Positions 4,331-63,725 of a stretch of DNA of 64,000 nucleotides are shown in pieces. Position 1 is the stretch's first letter. Every line of letters starts with the position of its first letter. Position numbers and translations under genes: made by a program. Under the pieces are notes generated by a model that had not been told where the DNA came from, did no database searches, and saw only the letters and a list, made by a program, of their open reading frames with translations. Source of the DNA: Chloroflexota bacterium (GTDB taxonomy: Bacteria; Chloroflexota; Limnocylindria; P2-11E); the NCBI GenBank assembly GCA_038040345.1, contig JBBPIQ010000002.1, forward strand, positions 189,747 through 253,746, written 5' to 3'.

Positions 4331-4916
4331 AATTCTCGCGCACCACACGCTCGTTCACGATGAGGAATCCGCCCGCGAGCGCGATAACGACCTCGACCCA
4401 TCCGAGCAAGAGAGAGAGACCGAGCTGCGGCACGGTGAGAAGACGAACGAGAAGCTCCACACCGGTGATCATCAGGATCGCACCGAGCGATCCGCGGACC
4501 GGGGTCCGAGCGGTCACGAGGATCGCGACGCCCGAAGAGATGAGCCAGAAGGCCGCGACCTGCGCCGTGACCCCGCTCGGATCCTCGCCGATCAGCGGGA
4601 CGCTGACGGTCTCGCTCGACGCGGTGCGAAGCGTCGCGAAGCACGCCGCCGTCGCCGCGGCCGCGACGATCGTCGCGAGCCAGAGCCGCCATCCGGGATC
4701 CTCGCCATATGTCCGGTCGCGCGCCGCCACGTAAAGGATCCCGCACGCCACAAGCGCACCGCAGCCTTCGACGGCGAGTTGGCTCACGGTGAGCTGGCCC
4801 GCGGTCACGACGTTCGCGGCGAGCGACACGCCGAGGAGCGCGACCGCCGAGTAGCGGAGCTGCCGCGAACCGTTCGCGGCGAGGGTCGCGAGCGCGACGA
4901 TGCCGAGGGGGATCAC
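4329..4916 (-). CDS. hydrophobic membrane protein, 195 aa
   Basis: ORF between two antiporter-like genes, several predicted TM helices. Confidence 0.3.
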   Translation of the reverse strand: MIPLGIVALATLAANGSRQLRYSAVALLGVSLAANVVTAGQLTVSQLAVEGCGALVACGILYVAARDRTYGEDPGWRLWLATIVAAAATAACFATLRTASSETVSVPLIGEDPSGVTAQVAAFWLISSGVAILVTARTPVRGSLGAILMITGVELLVRLLTVPQLGLSLLLGWVEVVIALAGGFLIVNERVVREN

Positions 4917-54214: not shown

Positions 54215-54793
54215 TCAAGCGCTCGAACCAAAACCAGAGGAGTCGCTCGTGTCCGGCGGCACTGGCGCTCCGTCCTTCGTTCCCGTGGAGACGAAGTTCG
54301 CCTTCAGCTCGCGCAACGGGTCAGGGCCGTTCGAGTGCCTAGCGCTCGCACCGAGCGCTGTGCGGGGTACTGCGGGCAGCGGCAACTTCGATACCAACGT
54401 CATGTATGTCACCGGGACGATCACCTCGGCTGAGGTCAACGGGCAGACCGCGGTCTTGAAGGGGTGCGGCGGTCTTGAAATTGATCGTTGTGCGTGCAGG
54501 GAGCGGCAGGAGTAGGCGCGCTTCTGGTCGATGATGATCGGCGCGTTCAGGTGCTCGATCCGCTCGACGTCGGGCTGCCCGTAGTGCGGCATGAAGCCTT
54601 GGACGAAGAAGGTGAACGTCTCGTTGAGCTGCCGCTGCGCCTCGGCGGCGATCGTGTCGAACACGAGCGAGGACTTCCCCGAGCCGGAGATGCCGGTGAA
54701 GACTGTGATCTTCTGCTTCGGGATGGACAGCGAGACGTTCTTGAGGTTTTTCTCGCGGGCGCCGTGGACCTCGATGAACGGATGGTCGGTCAT
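54215..54793 (-). pseudogene. UvrA-like ABC ATPase, N-terminal fragment only
   Basis: first about 93 codons match the UvrA N-terminus (GAREKNLKNVSLSIP, Walker A GISGSGKSSL, FDTIAAEAQRQ, IIIDQK); the remainder of the ORF is unrelated. Confidence 0.5.
54441..54480 (+). other. tRNA-Ser(UGA)-derived 5' fragment
   Basis: exact 16-nt match TGCGGCGGTCTTGAAA to the D-stem/anticodon arm of the tRNA at 56651; partial repeat CCGCGGTCTTGAA just upstream. Confidence 0.4.
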
Positions 54794-54900
54794 GCGTCGA
54801 CCCTAGAGCGCCGCGAGCATCACTTCAGGCAGCGCCGGATGCTGGCGGCGTCGAGGTCCTTCTCGCACCGCCGCTTGAGCATCCGGCGTTCTTACTCGGG

Positions 54901-55374
54901 CTAGCGGGCGTGCGCGGCCACCCAAGTGGCGAGGCTGTCGAGAGACCCGCGGGCGCCCTCCGCGGCGTAGTACTTGGCGACCTTCTCGTCTCTCTCTTCC
55001 TTGCTGCCGAAGACCAAACGGAGTGTCGCCTCGGTCGTGGCGCCGCGCTCGGCGAGCGTCAGGACGGTCTTTACCTGGTTGGGGTCGTCCTTGCCCATCC
55101 CGTACATCCAGACGATACGTTCCGGTGGGGTGATCTCTTTCCAAACGAAGTGGTTCGGGTACTCGCTGCCGTCGGGGCCGTGGATCGTCGCGTCCCAGAC
55201 ACCGCCCGGCTTGAAGTCGAACGAGTGCGTGGTGATCTCGCCGCCCTTCGGCGCACACCACTCCTCGAGGTGGGCGGCGCTGGTGAACGCGTCGAACACG
55301 AGTCGTCGTGGCCCCTCGATGATCCGCGAGACTACGATCTCGCGCTCCGCCTCAGTGCTTGTTTCGGTTGCCAT
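54901..55374 (-). CDS. SRPBCC (AHSA1-like) family protein
   Basis: RIIEGPRRLVFDAFTSAAHLEEWCAPKG... Confidence 0.7.
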   Translation of the reverse strand: MATETSTEAEREIVVSRIIEGPRRLVFDAFTSAAHLEEWCAPKGGEITTHSFDFKPGGVWDATIHGPDGSEYPNHFVWKEITPPERIVWMYGMGKDDPNQVKTVLTLAERGATTEATLRLVFGSKEERDEKVAKYYAAEGARGSLDSLATWVAAHAR

Positions 55375-55741
55375 CTGTGTGCTCCTTCTGCTGCAATTTC
55401 TTCACGTATTCGTTTAGCCTCTCGAAGTTCTCGTTCCAGTACTGCTCGAATCCGACGACCCATTCGTGGACCGGCTCAAGGCCGCGCGCGTCGAGCGCGT
55501 AGAGCCGCTGCTGTCCCGACTCGCGAACGCGCACGAGGCCGACCTCGCGCAGCACACGAAGGTGCTTCGACGTCCGGGGCTGCGTGATCCGCAGCGCTCG
55601 GGCGAGCTCGTTCACCGGGCGCTCGCGCCCCTTCAGGAGCATGAGGATCCGGCGACGCTGCGGCTCGGCCACCGCGTTGAAGGCATCGGAGGTGGTCGCG
55701 GCTCGGGCCATGTCGCTTGAAATATATGTCCATATCGGCAT
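55352..55741 (-). CDS. ArsR/SmtB family transcriptional regulator
   Basis: FNAVAEPQRRRILMLLKGRERPVNELARALRITQPRTSKHLRVLREVGLV; start at 55741 or 55711. Confidence 0.7.
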   Translation of the reverse strand: MPIWTYISSDMARAATTSDAFNAVAEPQRRRILMLLKGRERPVNELARALRITQPRTSKHLRVLREVGLVRVRESGQQRLYALDARGLEPVHEWVVGFEQYWNENFERLNEYVKKLQQKEHTDGNRNKH

Positions 55742-55848
55742 ATGTCAAGAAGCGGTGCCGGAAGATTGGCTCGCAAACATTTGATCAGCCTCGTTGTTTC
55801 GCGAGAGAGCTCTTGGGGCGATTCAGATCACCATCGCAAGCTCGGTCC

Positions 55849-56328
55849 TCAGCGCACCGCTTTCTTTACGAACGCGCCGATCCTTGCCTCTTCGGCCGCA
55901 GCCAACTCCGTCAGCGCGTAGGCGACCGGCCACATAGCGCCTTCGTCGAGGTTCGCCGCGTCGCTGAAGCCGAGCGTCGCGTATCTCGTCTTGAACTTCT
56001 GCGCGTCTTGGAAGAAGCAGACGACCTTGCCGTCTTTGGCATACGCGGGCATCCCGTACCAGAGCTTCGGAGACAGGGCTGGCGCGCTGGCTTTGACGAT
56101 CGCGTGGAGCCGCTTGCCCAGGGCGCGATCCGGTTCCCGCATCTGGGCGATCTTCGCGAGCACCGCGCTCTCCCCGTCCGCCTTGTCCGCGGCCGCCTTC
56201 AGCTCTTGGGCGCGCTCCTTCATCGCGGCTCGTTCCTCCACGGTGAATCCCTTGGACGTCTTGCCGCTCGCGGTGGTGCTCTTGGCGGACTTCTGCGCGC
56301 CCTTCTTTGCAGGTTTCCTCTGAGCCAT
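55849..56328 (-). CDS. DUF1801 domain protein with Lys-rich N-terminus
   Basis: [19 protein letters not shown]. Confidence 0.6.
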
Positions 56329-56650
56329 GGTGTCTGCTGACCTCCTGCGCGTCTGCGGCGCTGAGCCGCGGCCCCAACATTACGGAGTCTGAGCCCCGCC
56401 TCGCACTTTAGTGGGTCGCCGTCCGCGAGGATGCGATGGGTGGCATGGGAGTCGCGATGCCGCTGGTAGCGGTCGCAGTCGCACCGCACCTTTCGCCTTA
56501 TCGTCCTGCACCACGCGTTAAGCAACGCTCTTCTCGCGAGGGCCCAAGCAGCCAACGCCCGTCGGCCTTGATGATGGGCATCAGAAATGGGCATCAGTTC
56601 TCCAACCCTGGTGTCCCAAGTCTGTTCAGGAGCCCCATCATTGTTGCCTC

Positions 56651-56737
56651 GGAGGGGTGGCAGAGCGGTCGAATGCGGCGGTCTTGAAAACCGCTACGTC
56701 CTTAGGGGCGTCGTGGGTTCGAATCCCACTCCCTCCG
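56651..56737 (+). tRNA. tRNA-Ser (anticodon UGA)
   Basis: acceptor GGAGGGG/TCCCTCC, anticodon stem GCGGT/ACCGC with loop CTTGAAA, long variable arm, T-loop GTGGGTTCGAATCCCAC, discriminator G; CCA not encoded. Confidence 0.8.
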
Positions 56738-56744
56738 CAGTGTG

Positions 56745-57020
56745 CAACTGACGATGTCAACTGACATCTGTGGTCTTGCTCTTTTTGGCGCAGCCGCTCG
56801 TACGGAGTCTGACCGCCCAGGGCGCCGAGGGGCCGGTCGAAAGTGTAGAAGTCCTCCCACTCTTGAAGTTTGGTCATGAACAGCTCGCTCTGGTCGACGA
56901 CGACGCCATTGAGCTCATCCCATCGCCGGGCATCCAGGAGCCTCTGTCGCCGGAGGGTTGAGGGAGCGAGGAGTTGGGCAGCACGTTCGCGTTGGCCTTG
57001 CCGCTCGCCGGATCGGACGG
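56745..57020 (-). mobile_element. DDE transposase/integrase C-terminal remnant
   Basis: minus-strand frame reads ...LQEWEDFYTFDRPLGALGGQTPYERL, resembling the rve-core YNxxRPHxxLGGxTP motif; no N-terminal catalytic region present. Confidence 0.4.
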
Positions 57021-57022
57021 GG

Positions 57023-57763
57023 TCAGTTCTTCTCGGCGTCGGAAGCGCTGACGAATCGGTAGCCGGCGCCCGGGACCGTCTCGATGTACCGGGGCTTGTG
57101 CCAGTCGTCCTGGAGCTTCGCCCGCAGCGCCCGCACGTGGCGGTCCACGACGTTGCTCTCGATCACGAAGTCGGTGCCCCAGAGCGCGTCGAGGATCTGC
57201 TCGCGCGTGAGGACGCTCCCGGCGTTGGCGGCGAGAAGGTACAGCAGTGCCTGCTCGAGCGAGGTGAGGTGCAGCTCGTGTTCGCCAGCGAGCACCTTTC
57301 GGTTGAGAACGTCGATCTCGAGGTCACCAATGCGCAGGCGCGGGACCAGCTCTACGGCGCTGCCGTGGGTCCGGCGGATCACCGCGTGGGCGCGGGCGAC
57401 CAGATCGTCCGGCACGAAGGGGATGCCGATGTAATCGTCCGCGCCGCGCTCGAAGGCGTCGAGCTTCCCGCGGAGGTCGCTGCGCCGGGTGAGGGCGATG
57501 ACCGCTGTCGACCCCTGGGCGCGCGCCTCGTTGATGAGCTGGATCCCCCGACCGGCCTCGATGTCTATGTTGACCAGAAGGAGATGGGGCTTCCACTCCA
57601 CGATCGCGCCCTTGGCCTGATTCACCGTTTCCGCGATCCGGCGGGCGTATCGCCCATGCCGCAGGGTGAGGTCGACGGTGTTCGCGAGCGCTTTGTCGCC
57701 GATGACCAAGAGCACGCGGACCGCGCGGTCGGATTCTCTTGCGGCCGGCTCGGCCTCTGCCAT
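57023..57763 (-). CDS. OmpR-family response regulator (orphan)
   Basis: receiver domain followed by winged helix (ETVPGAGYRFV); no histidine kinase gene adjacent. Confidence 0.75.
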   Translation of the reverse strand: MAEAEPAARESDRAVRVLLVIGDKALANTVDLTLRHGRYARRIAETVNQAKGAIVEWKPHLLLVNIDIEAGRGIQLINEARAQGSTAVIALTRRSDLRGKLDAFERGADDYIGIPFVPDDLVARAHAVIRRTHGSAVELVPRLRIGDLEIDVLNRKVLAGEHELHLTSLEQALLYLLAANAGSVLTREQILDALWGTDFVIESNVVDRHVRALRAKLQDDWHKPRYIETVPGAGYRFVSASDAEKN

Positions 57764-57772
57764 CGGCCCATT

Positions 57773-58342
57773 CTAGGCTTGGCTGTTCTCGTAAATACGC
57801 ACGCCGAGCTCGCGGCTCAGCGGAAGTGGCCAGCCGGAGGGACCGCGCCCAACCGATACCGGATCGTCATAGCTACCGAGGAGCACCAAGAGACCCGCGT
57901 GCGTCCCGACAGGCGCTCCGATCCAGACCAGACCTACCGCGTGGCTCGTCGTTCCGTCGCCGGCCGGCTCTTGGCTGAGGGTGACCGGAGGAGCGCCGCC
58001 GGTATTGATACCAGATTCGGTCACGGCGAGCCGGAAGTGCGAAGGCGGACTTTGCGAGCCCTCGGCGATCCTCGGCCCGTAGTGTTTCGGCACCGCCCAG
58101 CTCGAGACCAACGGTTCGAGAGCCGCGCGTTGTGCCGCGTCGGCCTCGGTCGACTCTCCCGCGTGGAGCGCTCTGAGCATCGCGACGTCGCGTCGGTCGT
58201 CGATGCTCGTCAATAGAGGTATGGCGGGTTCGATCCCGTGTGGCGACCCCGCCACGATTCGCGCGGCCGCGCCGTCCACATCTGCGACGCGCAGCCGGAA
58301 CTCTTCGAGCACGAGGACGCGGATGGGGTCAGCGATCGACAC
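57773..58342 (-). CDS. hypothetical protein upstream of the response regulator
   Basis: 189-aa ORF with normal composition, 10-nt gap to the regulator gene. Confidence 0.35.
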   Translation of the reverse strand: MSIADPIRVLVLEEFRLRVADVDGAAARIVAGSPHGIEPAIPLLTSIDDRRDVAMLRALHAGESTEADAAQRAALEPLVSSWAVPKHYGPRIAEGSQSPPSHFRLAVTESGINTGGAPPVTLSQEPAGDGTTSHAVGLVWIGAPVGTHAGLLVLLGSYDDPVSVGRGPSGWPLPLSRELGVRIYENSQA

Positions 58343-58463
58343 TGTCTTGAACCCTGACGCCTGGGGGTGTCCTTGTCATGACCTTGCCGTCATCTGCGCC
58401 GCATCTGCCGCATGACTGTTTGGTCATGACTCGAGCAAGCAACCAGCCCAAGATGCAGTCGAG

Positions 58464-59441
58464 GTGTCCGACATGAAGAACTCAAAGGCACTCGCTGCGA
58501 CGGTCGTCATCGCGCTCATCATTGCGATCGGCGCGATGGCAGGCACCGCTGCGAATGCGGCAACTTCCACTGTTCCCCTGGGAACGGCTGCCAGCTTCTC
58601 GGTCCTCGGCGGTCTGGCAGTGACCAACACAGGCCCGACCACCACCGACAAAGACGTAGGGGTTTGGCCCGGTACCTCGGTGGGCGCGTGGCCGCCCGGA
58701 ATAGCCGGCGGGGCAATCCACGCGGGTGACGCCGTCGCGCAGCAGGCCCAGAGCGACCTGACCACCGCGTATAACAACGCCGCAGGACGAACGCCGTTCA
58801 CGGTTGTGGGTGGCGATCTCGTCGGGCAGACCCTCGTTGGTGGCGTCTATAGAGGCGGCACGCTCGGTCTCACAGGAGTGCTGACCCTCGATGGGCAGAA
58901 CGATCCAGCGTCCGTCTGGATCTTCCAGACGCCGGCAACCCTCATCACCGGGTCGTCGAGTCTTGTGAGCTTCATCAACGGCGCGAGCCCGTGCAACGTC
59001 TTCTGGCAGGTCGGGAGCTCAGCGACTCTGGGAACGGGCTCCACCTTCGTCGGCACGATCATGGCTCTAACCAAGATCACGGTCACTACCGGCGTGACCG
59101 TCTATGGCAGAGCGCTGGCCCGGAATGATGCCGTGACATTGGACAACGACCGATTCCTAACGTCAGTGTGCGCATCTGCGCTAAACATTCCGCCGACGCG
59201 GCCACCGTTCACGGTTGCACCTTCGGCAACTCCGATAGCCGCGCCCACAGCGACCCCGATCGGTGCGGCCACTCCAACCGCAGCGCCGACAGTCGCTCCA
59301 ACCGCAGCGCCGACAGTTCATCTAACAGTCCTGCCATCAACGAGCACGGCGGAGTCGTGGGGTCCGCTCGCGCTGCTTGGCCTGGCCCTGGCCAGCTTCG
59401 GGGCGCTTCTGCTGCTTCGTAGACCACTTCGGAACTTCTAG
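58464..59441 (+). CDS. secreted DUF3494 (ice-binding-like) protein with Pro/Thr/Ala linker and C-terminal hydrophobic-basic tail
   Basis: signal peptide; LGTAASFSVLGGLAVTNTGPTT; PTAAPTVAPTAAPT linker; C-terminus LPSTSTAE + hydrophobic helix + RRPLRNF. Confidence 0.65.
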   Translation: MSDMKNSKALAATVVIALIIAIGAMAGTAANAATSTVPLGTAASFSVLGGLAVTNTGPTTTDKDVGVWPGTSVGAWPPGIAGGAIHAGDAVAQQAQSDLTTAYNNAAGRTPFTVVGGDLVGQTLVGGVYRGGTLGLTGVLTLDGQNDPASVWIFQTPATLITGSSSLVSFINGASPCNVFWQVGSSATLGTGSTFVGTIMALTKITVTTGVTVYGRALARNDAVTLDNDRFLTSVCASALNIPPTRPPFTVAPSATPIAAPTATPIGAATPTAAPTVAPTAAPTVHLTVLPSTSTAESWGPLALLGLALASFGALLLLRRPLRNF

Positions 59442-59763
59442 CGAGATCCTCGCGCAAGACCGCCAAGCCAGGTGAAGATCCAGCTCAGTGCACTTGGCTT
59501 GGCGGCGGCGTGTGCGAGCAACTTGTTCGCGGATTCTCAGCTCCCGGACGCAAGTCGATCCATTGTTCAGGATCCTTCTCATAGTTGCGCTCGTCGTCAT
59601 AGTTCCGCGTGTTGGTCGACGAGGCGATCCGCCTGCTACTACAGCAATTCCTGTAGCAGAGACGAGCGACGGCCGCGCACGATCGGGGACGACACCGGAC
59701 GGGCTGCGCGATTTTCTCGAATGAATCGACGTTAGCGGACGATCATGGACGGGCCGGGGCGCA

Positions 59764-59818
59764 CTTGAAAACCGCTGAGGGTGCAAGCTCTCCGTGGGTT
59801 CGAATCCCACCCCCTCCG
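59764..59818 (+). other. partial tRNA-Ser-like sequence (anticodon loop to 3' end), att-like
   Basis: CTTGAAAACCGCT ... GTGGGTTCGAATCCCAC CCCCTCC G shares anticodon loop, T-arm and acceptor 3' strand with tRNA-Ser but has a different variable arm and no D-arm. Confidence 0.5.
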
Positions 59819-59833
59819 CAGATCGTTAGGGAA

Positions 59834-60292
59834 TCAACGGCGGGCTTTTAGCGCGGCCTCGATCTCGTCGAGGTGCTCGCGGCGGTGATCGGCGCGTACC
59901 GGATTGATCGGGCTGTCGGGGTCGCCCGGCCAAAGCCGGTCCAGGGGCAGCTTCGCTACGCGCGCGTCCGTCTCGTCGGCGATCCGCAGGGCGAACTTCG
60001 CGGCCTCTCTCGGCGCGATCGCGTGGATCAGCGGACGGGTCGAGTCGTTGAGCCAGTCGCCGCCGGGCTCGGCGTCCGACGTCGCCCACGGTTCGCCGCG
60101 ATCGATCTTCTCGGCGAGGACCAGAACGCGGATGTCCCAGTACGCGATGTGACCGAGCACGCCGGCGACGGTCCAAAACTCGTTCACGGGAGCGGTGAGC
60201 GCGTCGTCGTCCAAGCTTTTGATGAGCGCGCGCAGACGCTCGCGTTCGCGGGTGTTCGCATCGATGTAGGAGCGATCGTCAGCCATCGTCGT
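59834..60292 (-). CDS. hypothetical protein, possibly DinB/YfiT-like
   Basis: start at MADDRSYID inside ORF 59834..60487; family assignment tentative. Confidence 0.4.
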   Translation of the reverse strand, partial: TTMADDRSYIDANTRERERLRALIKSLDDDALTAPVNEFWTVAGVLGHIAYWDIRVLVLAEKIDRGEPWATSDAEPGGDWLNDSTRPLIHAIAPREAAKFALRIADETDARVAKLPLDRLWPGDPDSPINPVRADHRREHLDEIEAALKARR

Positions 60293-60294
60293 AG

Positions 60295-61008
60295 CTAGGC
60301 GCGGCCGGCGTGAGCCTTCGCGACGTCGCCGATGATCTCGGCGAGCTCCTTTGGCCGCGACCACATCGGCCAGTGGCTCGTCGGCAGGTCGACCCAGGTG
60401 ACATTGCGTAGCTCGGCGAGACCCCCGAGCCACGCCTGGCCCTCCTTGACCGCGTCCTTGTATTGCGCGGACGTGTACCCCGTGCACACGACCGTGCTCG
60501 GCACGTCGAGGCGCGCGGCGTTCGTCAGCTTGGCCGCCCCGCGCAGCGCGGCGCCCGGCTCGGGAACGGCCCGGCGCCGGAACGTCTCGAGCTGCTCCTT
60601 GGAGAGCCCGTCGAGGTTCTCGTCTGCCGCGAGCTTCTCGAGCGAGGGCATCGGCTTCTCCGCCGCGTCGAAGCTCGCGTCGAGCGCGGCCGTCGCTGGG
60701 CCGGTGTCGACGTAGACAATCGCCGCGAGCTGCTTGGGGATGCGGTCGGTAACCGCATACCCGGGGGCCCCGGCACCACTATGCACCGCGAGCACGACAC
60801 GATCCCCCGCGGCCTTCACCGCGTTGCAGATCGCGTCGACGTGGTCGGCGAACGTGATCGCGGATCGATCGGCATCCGCCGACTCGAGACCGGGCAGCGT
60901 CACCGCCGTCACGCGGTGACCGTCGGCACGCAACGCGGCGGCGACCTCGTCCCACGCCCACGCGCCGAGCCAGAAACCGGGAACCAGGACGATCGGTGCA
61001 GTCGTCAT
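60295..61008 (-). CDS. alpha/beta hydrolase fold protein
   Basis: start MTTAPIVLVPGFWLGAWAW with upstream GAGGA; nucleophile-elbow-like LAVHSGAG. Confidence 0.6.
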   Translation of the reverse strand: MTTAPIVLVPGFWLGAWAWDEVAAALRADGHRVTAVTLPGLESADADRSAITFADHVDAICNAVKAAGDRVVLAVHSGAGAPGYAVTDRIPKQLAAIVYVDTGPATAALDASFDAAEKPMPSLEKLAADENLDGLSKEQLETFRRRAVPEPGAALRGAAKLTNAARLDVPSTVVCTGYTSAQYKDAVKEGQAWLGGLAELRNVTWVDLPTSHWPMWSRPKELAEIIGDVAKAHAGRA

Positions 61009-61086
61009 TCCTCGGACCCTAGCGCGGGCAACGACATCGCGCATCCGGGCGGCTAGAGTCCATCCAGAAATCCTCGGAGGTGCGTC

Positions 61087-61167
61087 ATGTCCTGCGCTTG
61101 TGGAGCGTGCTGCGGTAAATGCTGTTCCGGCGTGAGCACCGAGACCAAGCCCAAGCCGACCAAGTAG
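61087..61167 (+). CDS. 26-aa cysteine-rich micropeptide (metallothionein-like or leader peptide)
   Basis: GGAGG 6 nt upstream of ATG; MSCACGACCGKCCSGVSTETKPKPTK, 7 Cys in 13 residues. Confidence 0.4.
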   Translation: MSCACGACCGKCCSGVSTETKPKPTK

Positions 61168-61280
61168 CTTCGAATCCCGTCCGGGGTATGCTCCCCGCGG
61201 CCCGGGGGAGGATGCGCGCTTCCAGAGATCGCGACCCGGACCTTCGCGCGTCGGTGTGAGCGCGGCGGAGGAGGGACTGC

Positions 61281-62738
61281 ATGGCTGCACGGGCGGCACG
61301 AACGGCCAGAAGGCCGGAGGCGCCGGCGATTCTTGAGCGGTTATTCAAGCTTCGCGAGAACTCGACCACGGTAAGCACCGAGGTCATTGGCGGCATCACG
61401 ACGTTCTTCGTGATGGCCTACATCATCGCGTTGAACCCGATCATCCTGAACTATGTCGGGAACGCGGGCCTTCAGGACAAGAACCTCGGGCCCGGCTTCC
61501 CGCAAACGGTCGCGATGACCGCGCTCTGCGCCGGCGTCCTCACGATCGCGATGGGTCTTTACGCGAACAGGCCGTTCGCGATGGCCGCCGGCCTCGGTCT
61601 CAACGCGGTGGTCGCGTACCAGCTCGTTCTCGGCACTCCGCCGCTGCCGTGGCAGGCCGCCATGGGGATCATCCTCATGGAAGGCATCGTCATCACCGCG
61701 CTCGTCCTGAGCGGCCTGCGCGAGGCCATCCTCAATGCGATCCCGATGCAGCTCAAACAGGCGATCGGCGTGGGCATCGGCCTCTTCATTCTGCTGATTG
61801 GACTCGTGAATGCCGGTTTCGTGACCCGCGGCGTGGGCACAGTCGTCACGTTGTCGCCTCTTAACACAGGCCCAATCCTGACGTTCGTCATCGGTCTCAT
61901 CATCACGCTCGCGCTCTTCGCCCGCGGCGTGCGGGCGGCGCTACTGCTCGGCATCGTCGGGACGACGATCGTCGCGGGTCTCCTACACGCGGTCTTCTCG
62001 ACGTACGTGCCCTCGACGGCTCCAGGCACGGCGCAGCTTCCCACGTCATGGTTCGAATTCCCCAACTTCTCGAACGCGCTCAGCGGACTGAACTTCAGCG
62101 CGTTCGCGACCATCGGCGTCCTCGCGACGATCCTCGCGGTGTTCACGATCATGCTGTCGGACTTCTTCGACACGATGGGCACCGTCATCGGCATTGGCGG
62201 CCAAGCCGGGTGGCTCGACAGCAAGGGCCGGCTCCCTGGCATCCGCAAGATCCTTCTTGTCGACTCGGTCGGTGCGGCGTTCGGCGGCCTCATGGGCGCG
62301 TCGAGCAACACGACCTATATCGAGTCTGCCGCGGGCGTCTCGTCCGGCGCGCGGACGGGCCTCGCGAGCGTGGTCACCGGCATCCTGTTCCTCGCCGCGA
62401 TGTTCATCGCGCCGGTCGTGGCGGTCATCCCGCCTGAGGCGACCGCGCCCGCTCTGGTCATCGTCGGATTCCTCATGGCGGGCATCGCGTCGAAGATCGA
62501 CTTCACCGATCTCGAGCTGGGTCTCCCCGCCCTGCTCACGATCGTGATCATGCCGTTCACGTACTCGATCACGAACGGCATCGGCGCAGGGTTCATCACC
62601 TTCGTCTTCATCAAGCTCGCACGCGGCAAGGCGAACGAGGTCCATCCCCTCATGTGGGGCGTCGCGCTCGCCTTCCTCCTGTACTTCGCGCAAAACGTCT
62701 ACGCCAGCGCGTTCGGCGTGGGTGGGTACCGCGAGTAG
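61281..62738 (+). CDS. NCS2 family nucleobase permease (AzgA-like purine permease)
   Basis: GGITTFFVMAYIIALNP...; about 13 TM helices; true start may be slightly downstream. Confidence 0.8.
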   Translation: MAARAARTARRPEAPAILERLFKLRENSTTVSTEVIGGITTFFVMAYIIALNPIILNYVGNAGLQDKNLGPGFPQTVAMTALCAGVLTIAMGLYANRPFAMAAGLGLNAVVAYQLVLGTPPLPWQAAMGIILMEGIVITALVLSGLREAILNAIPMQLKQAIGVGIGLFILLIGLVNAGFVTRGVGTVVTLSPLNTGPILTFVIGLIITLALFARGVRAALLLGIVGTTIVAGLLHAVFSTYVPSTAPGTAQLPTSWFEFPNFSNALSGLNFSAFATIGVLATILAVFTIMLSDFFDTMGTVIGIGGQAGWLDSKGRLPGIRKILLVDSVGAAFGGLMGASSNTTYIESAAGVSSGARTGLASVVTGILFLAAMFIAPVVAVIPPEATAPALVIVGFLMAGIASKIDFTDLELGLPALLTIVIMPFTYSITNGIGAGFITFVFIKLARGKANEVHPLMWGVALAFLLYFAQNVYASAFGVGGYRE

Positions 62739-62804
62739 CGTTCGGTCCGGCACCTAAAGGAGAGGCCCTGCCGCGCTGGCAGGGCCTCTTTCTATGCTGA
62801 ACAC

Positions 62805-63575
62805 GTGGAGCCACGAGCAGCGGTCCGCGAAGCGCTCGAGCGCGGTGAGCGCGCGGCCCTCGTCACGGTGACGGCGCTCGAGGGAAGTCCGCCGTCGCGC
62901 GAAGGCATGGCGCTCGGCGTGCTCGAAAGCGGCGAACGGTTCGGCAGCCTGGGGTGCGACGGATTCGACGAGTCCGGCGAGCACGACGCGACGCGCGCGT
63001 TGCGCGAACGCGTTCGACTCGAGCGCACGTACGACTGGGACGATGCGTCGCGCATCCGCGTCGAGGTCCGTCCATTCGTGCCGGGCGAAACGGTCCCTGG
63101 ATCGACCGCGCGGCCCGAGCTGATCGTTATCGGAACAGGTCCGGTCGCGCGCGCGCTCGCGACCATCGGGAAGGTCCTCGGGTTCACGATCCGCGCGGTC
63201 TCCGTCGGTGCATCCGATGCGCCGGAGCCTGATGAGCGCATCGTCGTTCGTGACGCGACCGAGCTCACCAGGCTGCGCCTCGGACCGGAGACCTATGTCG
63301 TCATCGCCGGGCACGACCGCGAGTTCTCGCAGGCGGCATTGCGCATCCTTCTCCTTTCGGAGGCGCCGTATCTCGGGATGATGGGCAGCCGCCGGCACAC
63401 CGGCGGTCTTCTCGACGAGCTACGTGCCGCGGGAATCTCTGATCGATCGCTCGCGCGCGTGCACACGCCGGTCGGTCTTGACCTTGGAGCGCAGACGCCG
63501 GAAGAGATCGCGCTCGCTGCGATCGCGCACATCGTCGCCACACGTAGGGGGAGGAGCGGGTCGCCTCTCGCCTGA
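62805..63575 (+). CDS. XdhC/CoxI family molybdo-enzyme maturation protein
   Basis: GTG start; LVTVTALEGSPPSREG... and Rossmann-like LIVIGTGPVARALA. Confidence 0.7.
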   Translation: MEPRAAVREALERGERAALVTVTALEGSPPSREGMALGVLESGERFGSLGCDGFDESGEHDATRALRERVRLERTYDWDDASRIRVEVRPFVPGETVPGSTARPELIVIGTGPVARALATIGKVLGFTIRAVSVGASDAPEPDERIVVRDATELTRLRLGPETYVVIAGHDREFSQAALRILLLSEAPYLGMMGSRRHTGGLLDELRAAGISDRSLARVHTPVGLDLGAQTPEEIALAAIAHIVATRRGRSGSPLA

Positions 63576-63619
63576 CCGGGCCGGCACGGGTAGACTCGCT
63601 CTGGGTTTGGTGACCTCAC

Positions 63620-63712
63620 GGGGAGGTCGCATAGTTGGCCTAGTGCGCGGGTTTGCTAAACCCGTAAGGATGCCGTAAGGCGCCTTCGAGGGTTCGAATC
63701 CCTCCCTCCCCG
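63620..63712 (+). tRNA. tRNA-Ser (anticodon GCU)
   Basis: acceptor GGGGAGG/CCTCCCC, anticodon stem CGGGT/ACCCG with loop TTGCTAA, long variable arm, T-loop GAGGGTTCGAATCCCTC. Confidence 0.8.
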
Positions 63713-63725
63713 CAGTTGTGATGTC

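Follow-up and report, generated by a model that had tools for sequence, protein, structure and literature searches.

A tRNA-Ser(UGA) gene of an uncultured Chloroflexota bacterium as probable attachment site for integrating elements on both of its sides

The tRNA-Ser(UGA) gene and the insertion downstream

The stretch of DNA considered here, called the window throughout this text, comprises 64,000 nucleotides (nt) of contig JBBPIQ010000002.1 (assembly GCA_038040345.1) from a Chloroflexota bacterium, and its subject of interest is a tRNA-Ser(UGA) gene accompanied, on either side, by a displaced piece of such a gene. The intact gene lies at 56651-56738 on the forward strand. It was called by ARAGORN and by Rfam (57.4 bits) at 56651-56737/8 and is confirmed by alignment; its anticodon loop, CTTGAAA, occupies gene positions 33-39. 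On the same strand, at 59764-59819, lies a 3' half of tRNA-Ser(UGA), gene positions 33-88, which starts at the first base of the anticodon loop and reaches the 3' end of the tRNA gene. The two copies share a 13-nt identity block, CTTGAAAACCGCT, which comprises the anticodon loop and the 3' strand of the anticodon stem (56683-56695 in the gene, forward strand, delimited by the three-way alignment described below; 59764-59776 in the copy), and their T arms (GTGGGTTCGAATCCCAC) are also identical. The 17-nt variable arm is unlike in the two (GAGGGTGCAAGCTCTCC vs ACGTCCTTAGGGGCGTC), although that of the 3' copy is predicted, as read from its sequence, to be still able to form a stem-loop, and the acceptor 3' strand differs by a single base, C for T. 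At the gathering score Rfam reported two tRNAs and nothing else, the 3' fragment giving only sub-threshold tRNA-like hits. The DNA to the left of this fragment is unrelated to tRNA and, in the three-way alignment, there is no decayed tRNA remainder at the fragment edges, the boundaries being sharp at the loop. As a side observation, the first base of the acceptor 3' strand in the window tRNA (56730) is T, which makes a G-U wobble with position 7, while the matching base is C in the displaced fragment and in all the relatives examined.

These copies can be compared with sister genomes of Candidatus (Ca.) Limnocylindria, which are 95-98% identical to the window strain. When species-representative genomes were scanned with the variable arm of the fragment, three intact tRNA-Ser(UGA) genes with exactly the fragment's 3' half were found, and a 3' half of this type is part of the intact tRNAs of the loci L002, L003, L004, and L035-L037. 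A look-up of the DUF1801 protein led to much closer sisters, L035-L037 (e.g., GCA_036564745.1), whose intact tRNA, with the fragment-type 3' half, abuts a DinB_2 gene. In L002, also a Ca. Limnocylindria, the tRNA directly adjoins the same gene, which follows the fragment in the window and constitutes its native right flank (59834-60286, reverse strand; Pfam and the gene call in L001). Window 59758-63715 aligns with L035 6500-2541 at 98.0% identity. In a three-way alignment, the sister tRNA equals the window tRNA up to CTTGAAAACCGCT and the window fragment thereafter. Since it matches the left junction up to this block and the right junction after it, the window carries an insertion, whose length, counted from one repeat (56683) to the other (59764), is 3,081 bp. 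L035-L037 lack the interval 56696-59763, although their flanks are conserved on the left (96.8%) as well as on the right (98.0%).

The insertion supplied a replacement 3' half and displaced the native one. Positions 1-32 of the present tRNA gene and its upstream region are native and the variable-arm allele 3' of the crossover block is foreign; this chimeric gene forms the left junction of what is called here the right-hand island, while the displaced native 3' half forms the right junction. The crossover itself would have taken place within CTTGAAAACCGCT. The right junction is also covered by L001, a 100% identical and independent assembly. A comparison with close relatives lacking the insert had been suggested in an earlier note on this DNA, made from the sequence alone, and L035-L037 and L002 provide it, with the tRNA beside DinB_2 and no insert in between. 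L002 was also considered as a simple empty site and rejected as such, given that its upstream region differs from that of the window and that its contig begins 80 nt before the tRNA; what it documents is an unoccupied 3' side only. Further to the right, an alpha/beta-hydrolase gene between DinB_2 and a permease gene (window 60295-61180) is present in the window and in L035-L037, while L002 has about 250 nt (L002 638-886) in its place.

The upstream scar and the use of the same loop in relatives

A second trace of the tRNA gene is found upstream. The 16-mer TGCGGCGGTCTTGAAA, which corresponds to tRNA positions 24-39 and ends at the last loop base, occurs in exactly two copies, one within the gene (56674-56689) and the other at 54465-54480, both on the forward strand. 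The expected number of copies with two mismatches at most is 0.04, and in 2000 second-order Markov simulations tRNA-window matches of 16 nt or longer arose with P = 0.005. The upstream copy is what remains of a displaced tRNA-Ser(UGA) 5' half. What follows it on the same strand, at 54481-54508 (TTGATCGT...GTGCAGGGAGCGGCA), is left over from the P' arm of an island and is homologous to the first bases of an island that restores the 5' half of the tRNA in the sisters. The 16-mer and these next 28 nt make up a scar of 44 nt (54465-54508). Its first 24 nt, TGCGGCGGTCTTGAAATTGATCGT, match exactly L035 9656-9633, the left junction of the sister island, and after a 10-nt gap GTGCAGGGAGCGGCA matches the same junction at 14 of 15 nt, the whole match being in register with the core. 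For the non-tRNA part of the scar alone, the observed score was reached by none of 5000 shuffles and by one of 4989 random 36-mers of the window. The 16-mer had also been considered as a coincidence or as a secondary attachment site, and both ideas were dropped upon the 24-nt match to the sister junction. It is a genuine remnant of a 5'-type junction, enclosed between two deletion endpoints.

Most of what the earlier note had described at the tRNA gene holds: the intact gene with a partial 3' copy of different variable arm (by ARAGORN, Rfam, and alignment), the exact 16-nt upstream copy, and the derivation of both pieces from the tRNA, with each break at an edge of its anticodon loop, where the 3' piece starts with the first loop base and the 5' piece stops with the last. 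Its start of the 5' fragment, at 54441, has to be abandoned. The segment 54441-54464, including the first GCGGTCTTGAA, is not derived from tRNA; it is conserved native coding sequence of a 163-aa gene for a secreted protein.

Of this secreted-protein gene, the 5' part remains in the window (54249-54464, forward strand, about 105 of 163 codons), truncated at 54464. Intact orthologues are found in L021 (1731-2222) and L025 (4584-5075), with nucleotide homology that covers 54242-54470 at 88%, and the native coding sequence GGCAGACCGCGGTCTTGAAGGGG resembles tRNA positions 9-23 by chance (GGCAGA-GCGGTC-GAA). The 5' piece lacks tRNA positions 1-23 because the deletion junction falls at 54464/54465. 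On the other side of the scar lies a UvrA-like pseudogene (54517-54793, reverse strand) of which the N-terminal 93 codons remain, residues 6-93 matching profile positions 5-92 of 943 in the NCBIfam UvrA models; in the sisters, this gene is down to about 10 codons and joined to NmrA. The pseudogene region next to NmrA thus seems to be a decaying one. The two pseudogenes (54517-54793 and 54249-54464) face each other, and the sisters have a different and larger deletion at the same place. Between this region and the tRNA, the genes AHSA1 (54901-55374), ArsR (55352-55741), and DUF1801 (55849-56328; the protein bears this name in the source record), all assigned by Pfam and all on the reverse strand, form the conserved left flank of the tRNA, with about 97% identity to the sisters. 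This block may be the body of an older island.

The sisters also carry an island at this tRNA gene, of opposite polarity. In L035-L037, the AHSA1-ArsR-DUF1801 block, the upstream region, and tRNA positions 1-39 (L035 11568-9641, the counterpart of window 54763-56689, 96.8% identical) are followed by a 3.1-kb island with a DoxX-like gene, two methyltransferase genes, and no integrase, which ends with an island-borne upstream region fused to a tRNA with the native 3' half. The attachment site is thus one and the same, occupied in the sisters by an island that restores the 5' half and in the window by one that restores the 3' half. In L038, the conserved upstream region is separated from the displaced 5' half by an extra 143 nt (4340-4483) with a second pair of GGCATCA motifs, which may be another junction remnant.

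Displaced 5' halves are found in other relatives as well. In L016, 4.7 kb before the intact tRNA, there is a copy of tRNA positions 1-39 (100% identical) that has kept the native upstream region. The DNA between the two contains a truncated tyrosine integrase, whose end is 130 nt short of the tRNA, and genes that look toxin-antitoxin-like when their translations are inspected by eye. L014 contains the same integrase in the same place and a displaced 5' half (positions 1-39), and L003 an integrase remnant there. The integrase of L016 is a member of a very large Chloroflexota family (PF14659 plus PF00589). Of three full-length homologues of it, in L018-L020, one lies beside a tRNA-Arg gene, in the usual convergent orientation, and two have no tRNA, which makes them uninformative for tRNA-Ser. 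In L004, two displaced 5' halves (1050-1088 and 2530-2564) are stacked, 1.5 and 3.0 kb apart. Overall, the displaced 5' halves of relatives end within the loop or at its end (position 35 or 39): at the last loop base in L016 and L035-L039, as in the window, and within the loop in L004. The earlier note had pointed to the loop breakpoint as the place where many tyrosine integrases cross over, a suggestion strengthened by the same breakpoints in many relatives. The evidence that a tyrosine integrase catalyzes recombination at this site is circumstantial, and consists of the integrases or integrase remnants beside the restored tRNA in L016, L014, and L003.

The replacement 3' half of the window has its own distribution. 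A metagenome scan for the present variable arm of the window tRNA gave 13 loci, in six of which it forms part of intact tRNAs; this arm is therefore a native allele in other lineages. The other seven (L005, L008, L009, L013, L017, L006, and L010) have the 3' half alone, starting at gene position 27, 28, or 32, that is, at the anticodon loop or a few bases before it, and include tandem arrays. L011 and L015 have matching uninterrupted sites. Two 3' halves lie 3.9 kb apart both in L017 (1655-1711 and 5574-5630) and in L013 (5182-5238 and 9101-9157), with TetR, amidase, and hydrolase genes and no integrase between them. Upstream of the 3' fragments there are phased direct repeats, such as GTACAGCCAC twice, or CGGGAYGAG three to four times at 10-nt spacing. 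Repeat-bearing DNA in this position, including window 59636-59763, is what would be expected of an integrase-binding arm. Scans of viral contigs with the present variable arm gave no hits, and with a general tRNA-Ser(UGA) 3'-half pattern they gave only tRNA arrays of large phages and one unrelated phage tRNA of 50% guanine-plus-cytosine (GC) content; no phage or provirus attachment site was found in these scans.

Cargo, insertion sequence, and candidate arm motifs

The right-hand island carries three cargo genes: an orphan response regulator of the OmpR/PhoB type (57023-57763, reverse strand; Pfam Response_reg and Trans_reg_C, and NCBIfam), a hypothetical protein of 189 aa (57773-58342, reverse strand) that matches no Pfam or NCBIfam model, and a secreted ice-binding-like (DUF3494) protein (58464-59441, forward strand; PF11999, E = 1.5e-53). 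The last of these ends (59290-59441) in Pro/Thr/Ala-rich repeats followed by LPSTS, a hydrophobic stretch, and RRPLRNF, an arrangement reminiscent of cell-wall sorting signals of the sortase type. When the exact proteins were looked up, the response regulator, AHSA1, and the protein P0121 had no record, probably on account of differing start codons. At the right junction, the island keeps a putative arm (P side; 59636-59763, forward strand) in which a palindrome (59636-59659) is followed by a 25-nt sequence repeated directly (59667-59691 and 59727-59751).

At the left junction, the corresponding arm is replaced by a terminal remnant of a probable IS481-family insertion sequence (IS) at 56741-56960 on the reverse strand. 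This remnant begins 3 nt past the discriminator base of the tRNA; about 200 bp are left, of which one end, TGTGCAACTGACGATGTC, with its TGT... terminal repeat, and about 44 C-terminal codons of the transposase survive. By tblastn, 56782-56913 is 86% identical to the transposase of L004, which passes the IS481-family model NF033577 (248 bits, cut-off 224), and an IS end of the TGTGCAACTGACGATGTC type also occurs at L004 5653. The gene content given in the earlier note (transposase remnant, OmpR-type regulator, hypothetical protein, DUF3494 protein, and no intact integrase) is correct by Pfam, NCBIfam, and tblastn, with the qualification that the transposase remnant, while present, belongs to an insertion sequence separate from the integration machinery.

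Insertions of the IS481 family lie 3-4 nt past the discriminator base of tRNA-Ser(UGA) in three loci, with the transposase reading toward the tRNA (window 56741-56960; L004 5653-7117; L007 127-1405). That of L007 is complete, terminal repeats included, and its protein is only about 30% identical to the L004/window type; the insertions therefore look independent. Their placement may be due to a preference for this target or to the survival of insertions that do no harm there. We know of no target preference of the IS481 family for a position 3-4 nt past a tRNA, and a literature search on IS481 targeting of tRNA 3' ends found nothing relevant.

A further feature of the attachment region is a bipartite motif, GGCATCAGAAATGGGCATCA, at 56577-56596 on the forward strand, 98 nt upstream of the anticodon arm. 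The pattern GSCRTCA-N3-6-GSCRTCA occurs 21 times in 310 kb (window plus loci) and all occurrences except one stand at fixed distances from the anticodon arm of tRNA-Ser(UGA), on either side. Upstream the distance is 96-107 nt, whether the upstream region is native or island-borne; downstream it is 111 nt, and the motif there belongs to the arm of the island in the sisters. Besides the window, the sites include L035 9753, 9544, and 6598 (reverse strand), L003 3977, L004 971, 2457, and 5479, and L016 9057. The motif is a candidate arm-type integrase site or, alternatively, a candidate promoter element.

Integration history, rival explanations, and known systems

The most satisfactory explanation, which we hold to be quite probable, is that the anticodon loop of this tRNA-Ser(UGA) gene is an attachment site for integrating elements that has been used from both sides, leaving an island on the right and a scar on the left. 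On the right, an element would have entered by site-specific recombination of the tyrosine-integrase type, with its crossover inside CTTGAAAACCGCT. It would have carried its own tRNA 3' part, so that the gene was kept intact at the left junction (56651-56738) and the native 3' part, without losing its link to DinB_2, came to lie 3,081 bp farther to the right (59764-59819). The cargo (regulator, hypothetical gene, and ice-binding-like protein) and the repeat-bearing arm at the right junction would be all that is left of the element. An IS481-family IS may later have landed 3 nt past the tRNA, and a subsequent deletion, which left about 200 bp of the IS, may have removed the integrase together with the tRNA-proximal arm and stranded the island. 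The integrase and arm would be expected where the IS remnant now lies because of the analogy with the convergent integrase-tRNA pair of L019, and IS insertion plus an adjacent deletion would be the simplest account of the missing integrase. On the left, an older island of the sisters' 5'-restoring family most likely began at 54465-54508 and ran to the present tRNA. A short-homology deletion, probably guided by the chance tRNA similarity (positions 9-23) of the secreted-protein gene, would have fused the scar to that truncated gene, and a second deletion would have truncated the adjacent UvrA-like gene. The earlier note took the two tRNA pieces to bracket one degenerate element. The DNA from the tRNA to the 3' piece is indeed an insertion absent from the sisters, and the single element is replaced by two events of opposite polarity.

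Several points weigh against this explanation. The left junction of the right-hand island is represented by a single assembly. The recombinase of this island is one that we infer rather than see in the window: there is no integrase among the open reading frames scanned (51.5-63.6 kb), no PF00589 match in those of the island, and no sequence similar to the L016-integrase family in the 64-kb window (tblastn, E < 1). The composition of the insert, which the earlier note had proposed as a check, shows no deviation. Its GC content (0.649 vs 0.673 for the window) is unremarkable and its tetranucleotide distance is at the 82nd percentile of windows of the same size, which points to a donor of similar composition or to an old island. 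The right-junction arm aligns weakly with the arms upstream of the 3' fragments in L017 and L006. On the left, the junction between the scar and the secreted-protein gene is away from the core and hence illegitimate, the AHSA1-ArsR-DUF1801 block is shared with sisters that show no scar there, and the scar could be a relocated piece and not an in-place boundary.

This last point leads to the rival that survives best, which concerns the left side and is a real possibility, if the lesser one. According to it, the scar 54465-54508 is a piece of a 5'-type junction, or of the attachment site of a free element, captured as filler during deletion and repair, and AHSA1-ArsR-DUF1801 is ordinary chromosome. 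Sisters share the block at 96.8% identity and lack the scar between NmrA and the UvrA stub, the scar borders are both gene truncation points, and just 44 nt are left of it. Nonetheless, the strand and side of the scar, upstream of the tRNA and co-oriented with it, fit a displaced 5' fragment, tandem displaced 5' halves are known at this tRNA in L004, and the larger deletion of the sisters would have erased any scar. An in-place boundary of an older island is accordingly favoured over a relocated scrap.

A broader proposal concerns the islets at this gene. The units of the tandem arrays (3' halves in L013 and L017, 5' halves in L004) each have cargo genes and no integrase, and integrases are missing from all the small islets at tRNA-Ser(UGA), a truncated one being kept only in L016 and L014. 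It is conceivable, though unlikely, that the anticodon loop of tRNA-Ser(UGA) in Chloroflexota of the Limnocylindria type is a two-sided capture platform on which integrase-less packets of 1.4-4 kb with attachment sites are stacked by an integrase acting in trans, with the GSCRTCA repeats as arm sites, and that the absence of the integrase is a design feature, as in integron cassettes or cis-mobilizable elements, and not the result of decay.

Less probable still is an origin of the 3-kb insert by homologous or illegitimate recombination with DNA of a related bacterium carrying another tRNA-Ser allele. The host-like composition of the insert, the absent integrase, and the fact that the replacing variable arm is a native allele in other lineages would agree with it. 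Homologous exchange, however, would replace the 3' half and not duplicate it; the displaced fragment starts exactly at the first loop base, next to DNA with no relation to tRNA, and in other lineages independent 3' fragments start at position 27, 28, or 32 and 5' halves end at 35 or 39. Finally, the idea that the fragments are decayed paralogous tRNA-Ser genes (duplication pseudogenes) or chance similarities in unrelated genes can be set aside as highly improbable, since, although the sequence left of the 16-mer is in fact a chance tRNA look-alike in a real gene, the intact tRNA of the sisters with an identical 3' half sits at the fragment's position, the boundaries are sharp at the loop with no decayed remainder, and chance is excluded statistically.

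The locus offers a clean and comparatively verified case of the turnover of tRNA-gene islands in an uncultured lineage of soil bacteria that has been little studied. The strain with the 3'-restoring island is 95-98% identical to those with the 5'-restoring one at the same site, which implies that the exchange is recent and frequent. The case also illustrates how islands may be stranded, by an IS hit beside the tRNA and a subsequent deletion, and how junction scars may be found far from obvious islands. Moreover, it flags the ice-binding-like protein and the orphan regulator as strain-specific accessory genes, and it provides sequence-defined attachment sites and candidate arm motifs which can be paired with the abundant Chloroflexota integrases of the L016 family. 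The current understanding of the mechanism of tRNA-gene islands is unchanged by it.

Among known systems, the remnant next to the tRNA agrees with the IS481 family in its TGT... terminal repeat and in a transposase C-terminus 86% identical to the full IS481-family transposase of L004. Cis-mobilizable elements (CIMEs) are stretches of DNA flanked by attachment sites and lacking integration genes, described beside streptococcal integrative and conjugative elements. The window island is like them in its recombinase-less cargo bounded by junction sites and in the tandem accretion at a single site; in contrast, the arm of its left junction has been lost to the IS, so that mobilization in trans is doubtful, and neither a cognate integrase nor a helper element was identified in the window.

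The closest likeness is with the anticodon-centred tRNA islands of Williams' sublocation classes and of Islander, which counts 3760 islands with a 3' fragment and 159 with a 5' fragment (of 3919), and 2083 anticodon-centred sites (PMC4383910). The locus shares with them an intact tRNA with a co-oriented displaced 3' fragment, an identity block that starts at the loop and is bounded by it, with the symmetric stem of the anticodon-loop class, a 3' part supplied by the element, absence in sisters, and tandem arrays in relatives. The right-hand island, of 3,081 bp, falls within the 2-200 kb of Islander, and the layout is that of a full tRNA with same-strand fragments, the 3' one downstream and the 5' piece upstream. 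The 3' fragment (positions 33-88) is an end fragment, and the insert is absent from relatives which keep both flanks. The 5' piece (positions 24-39), unlike the end fragments of Islander, is internal to the tRNA gene. The island also differs in being just 3.1 kb long and in having its tRNA-side arm replaced by the IS481 remnant, and the integrase filter of Islander would reject it since it has no integrase.

The islands of L035-L039, L016, and L004 correspond to the 5'-fragment type (159 of 3919 in Islander; PMC4383910). They displace both the native 5' half (positions 1-39 or 1-35) and the region upstream of it and supply new versions of the two, and in L016 and L014 the integrase is located just upstream of the restored tRNA. 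The window departs from this type in keeping only a 44-nt scar, with an internal piece of the tRNA (24-39), and most of the copies described here have no integrase. Mildly unusual traits are the two-sided use in near-identical strains, the integrase-less islets, the GSCRTCA motif, and the recurrent IS481 insertions past the tRNA. In all, the locus represents a known process and not a new one: an element integrates site-specifically at the anticodon loop of a tRNA gene and then decays. Both the 3' type and the rarer 5' type of island are already known.

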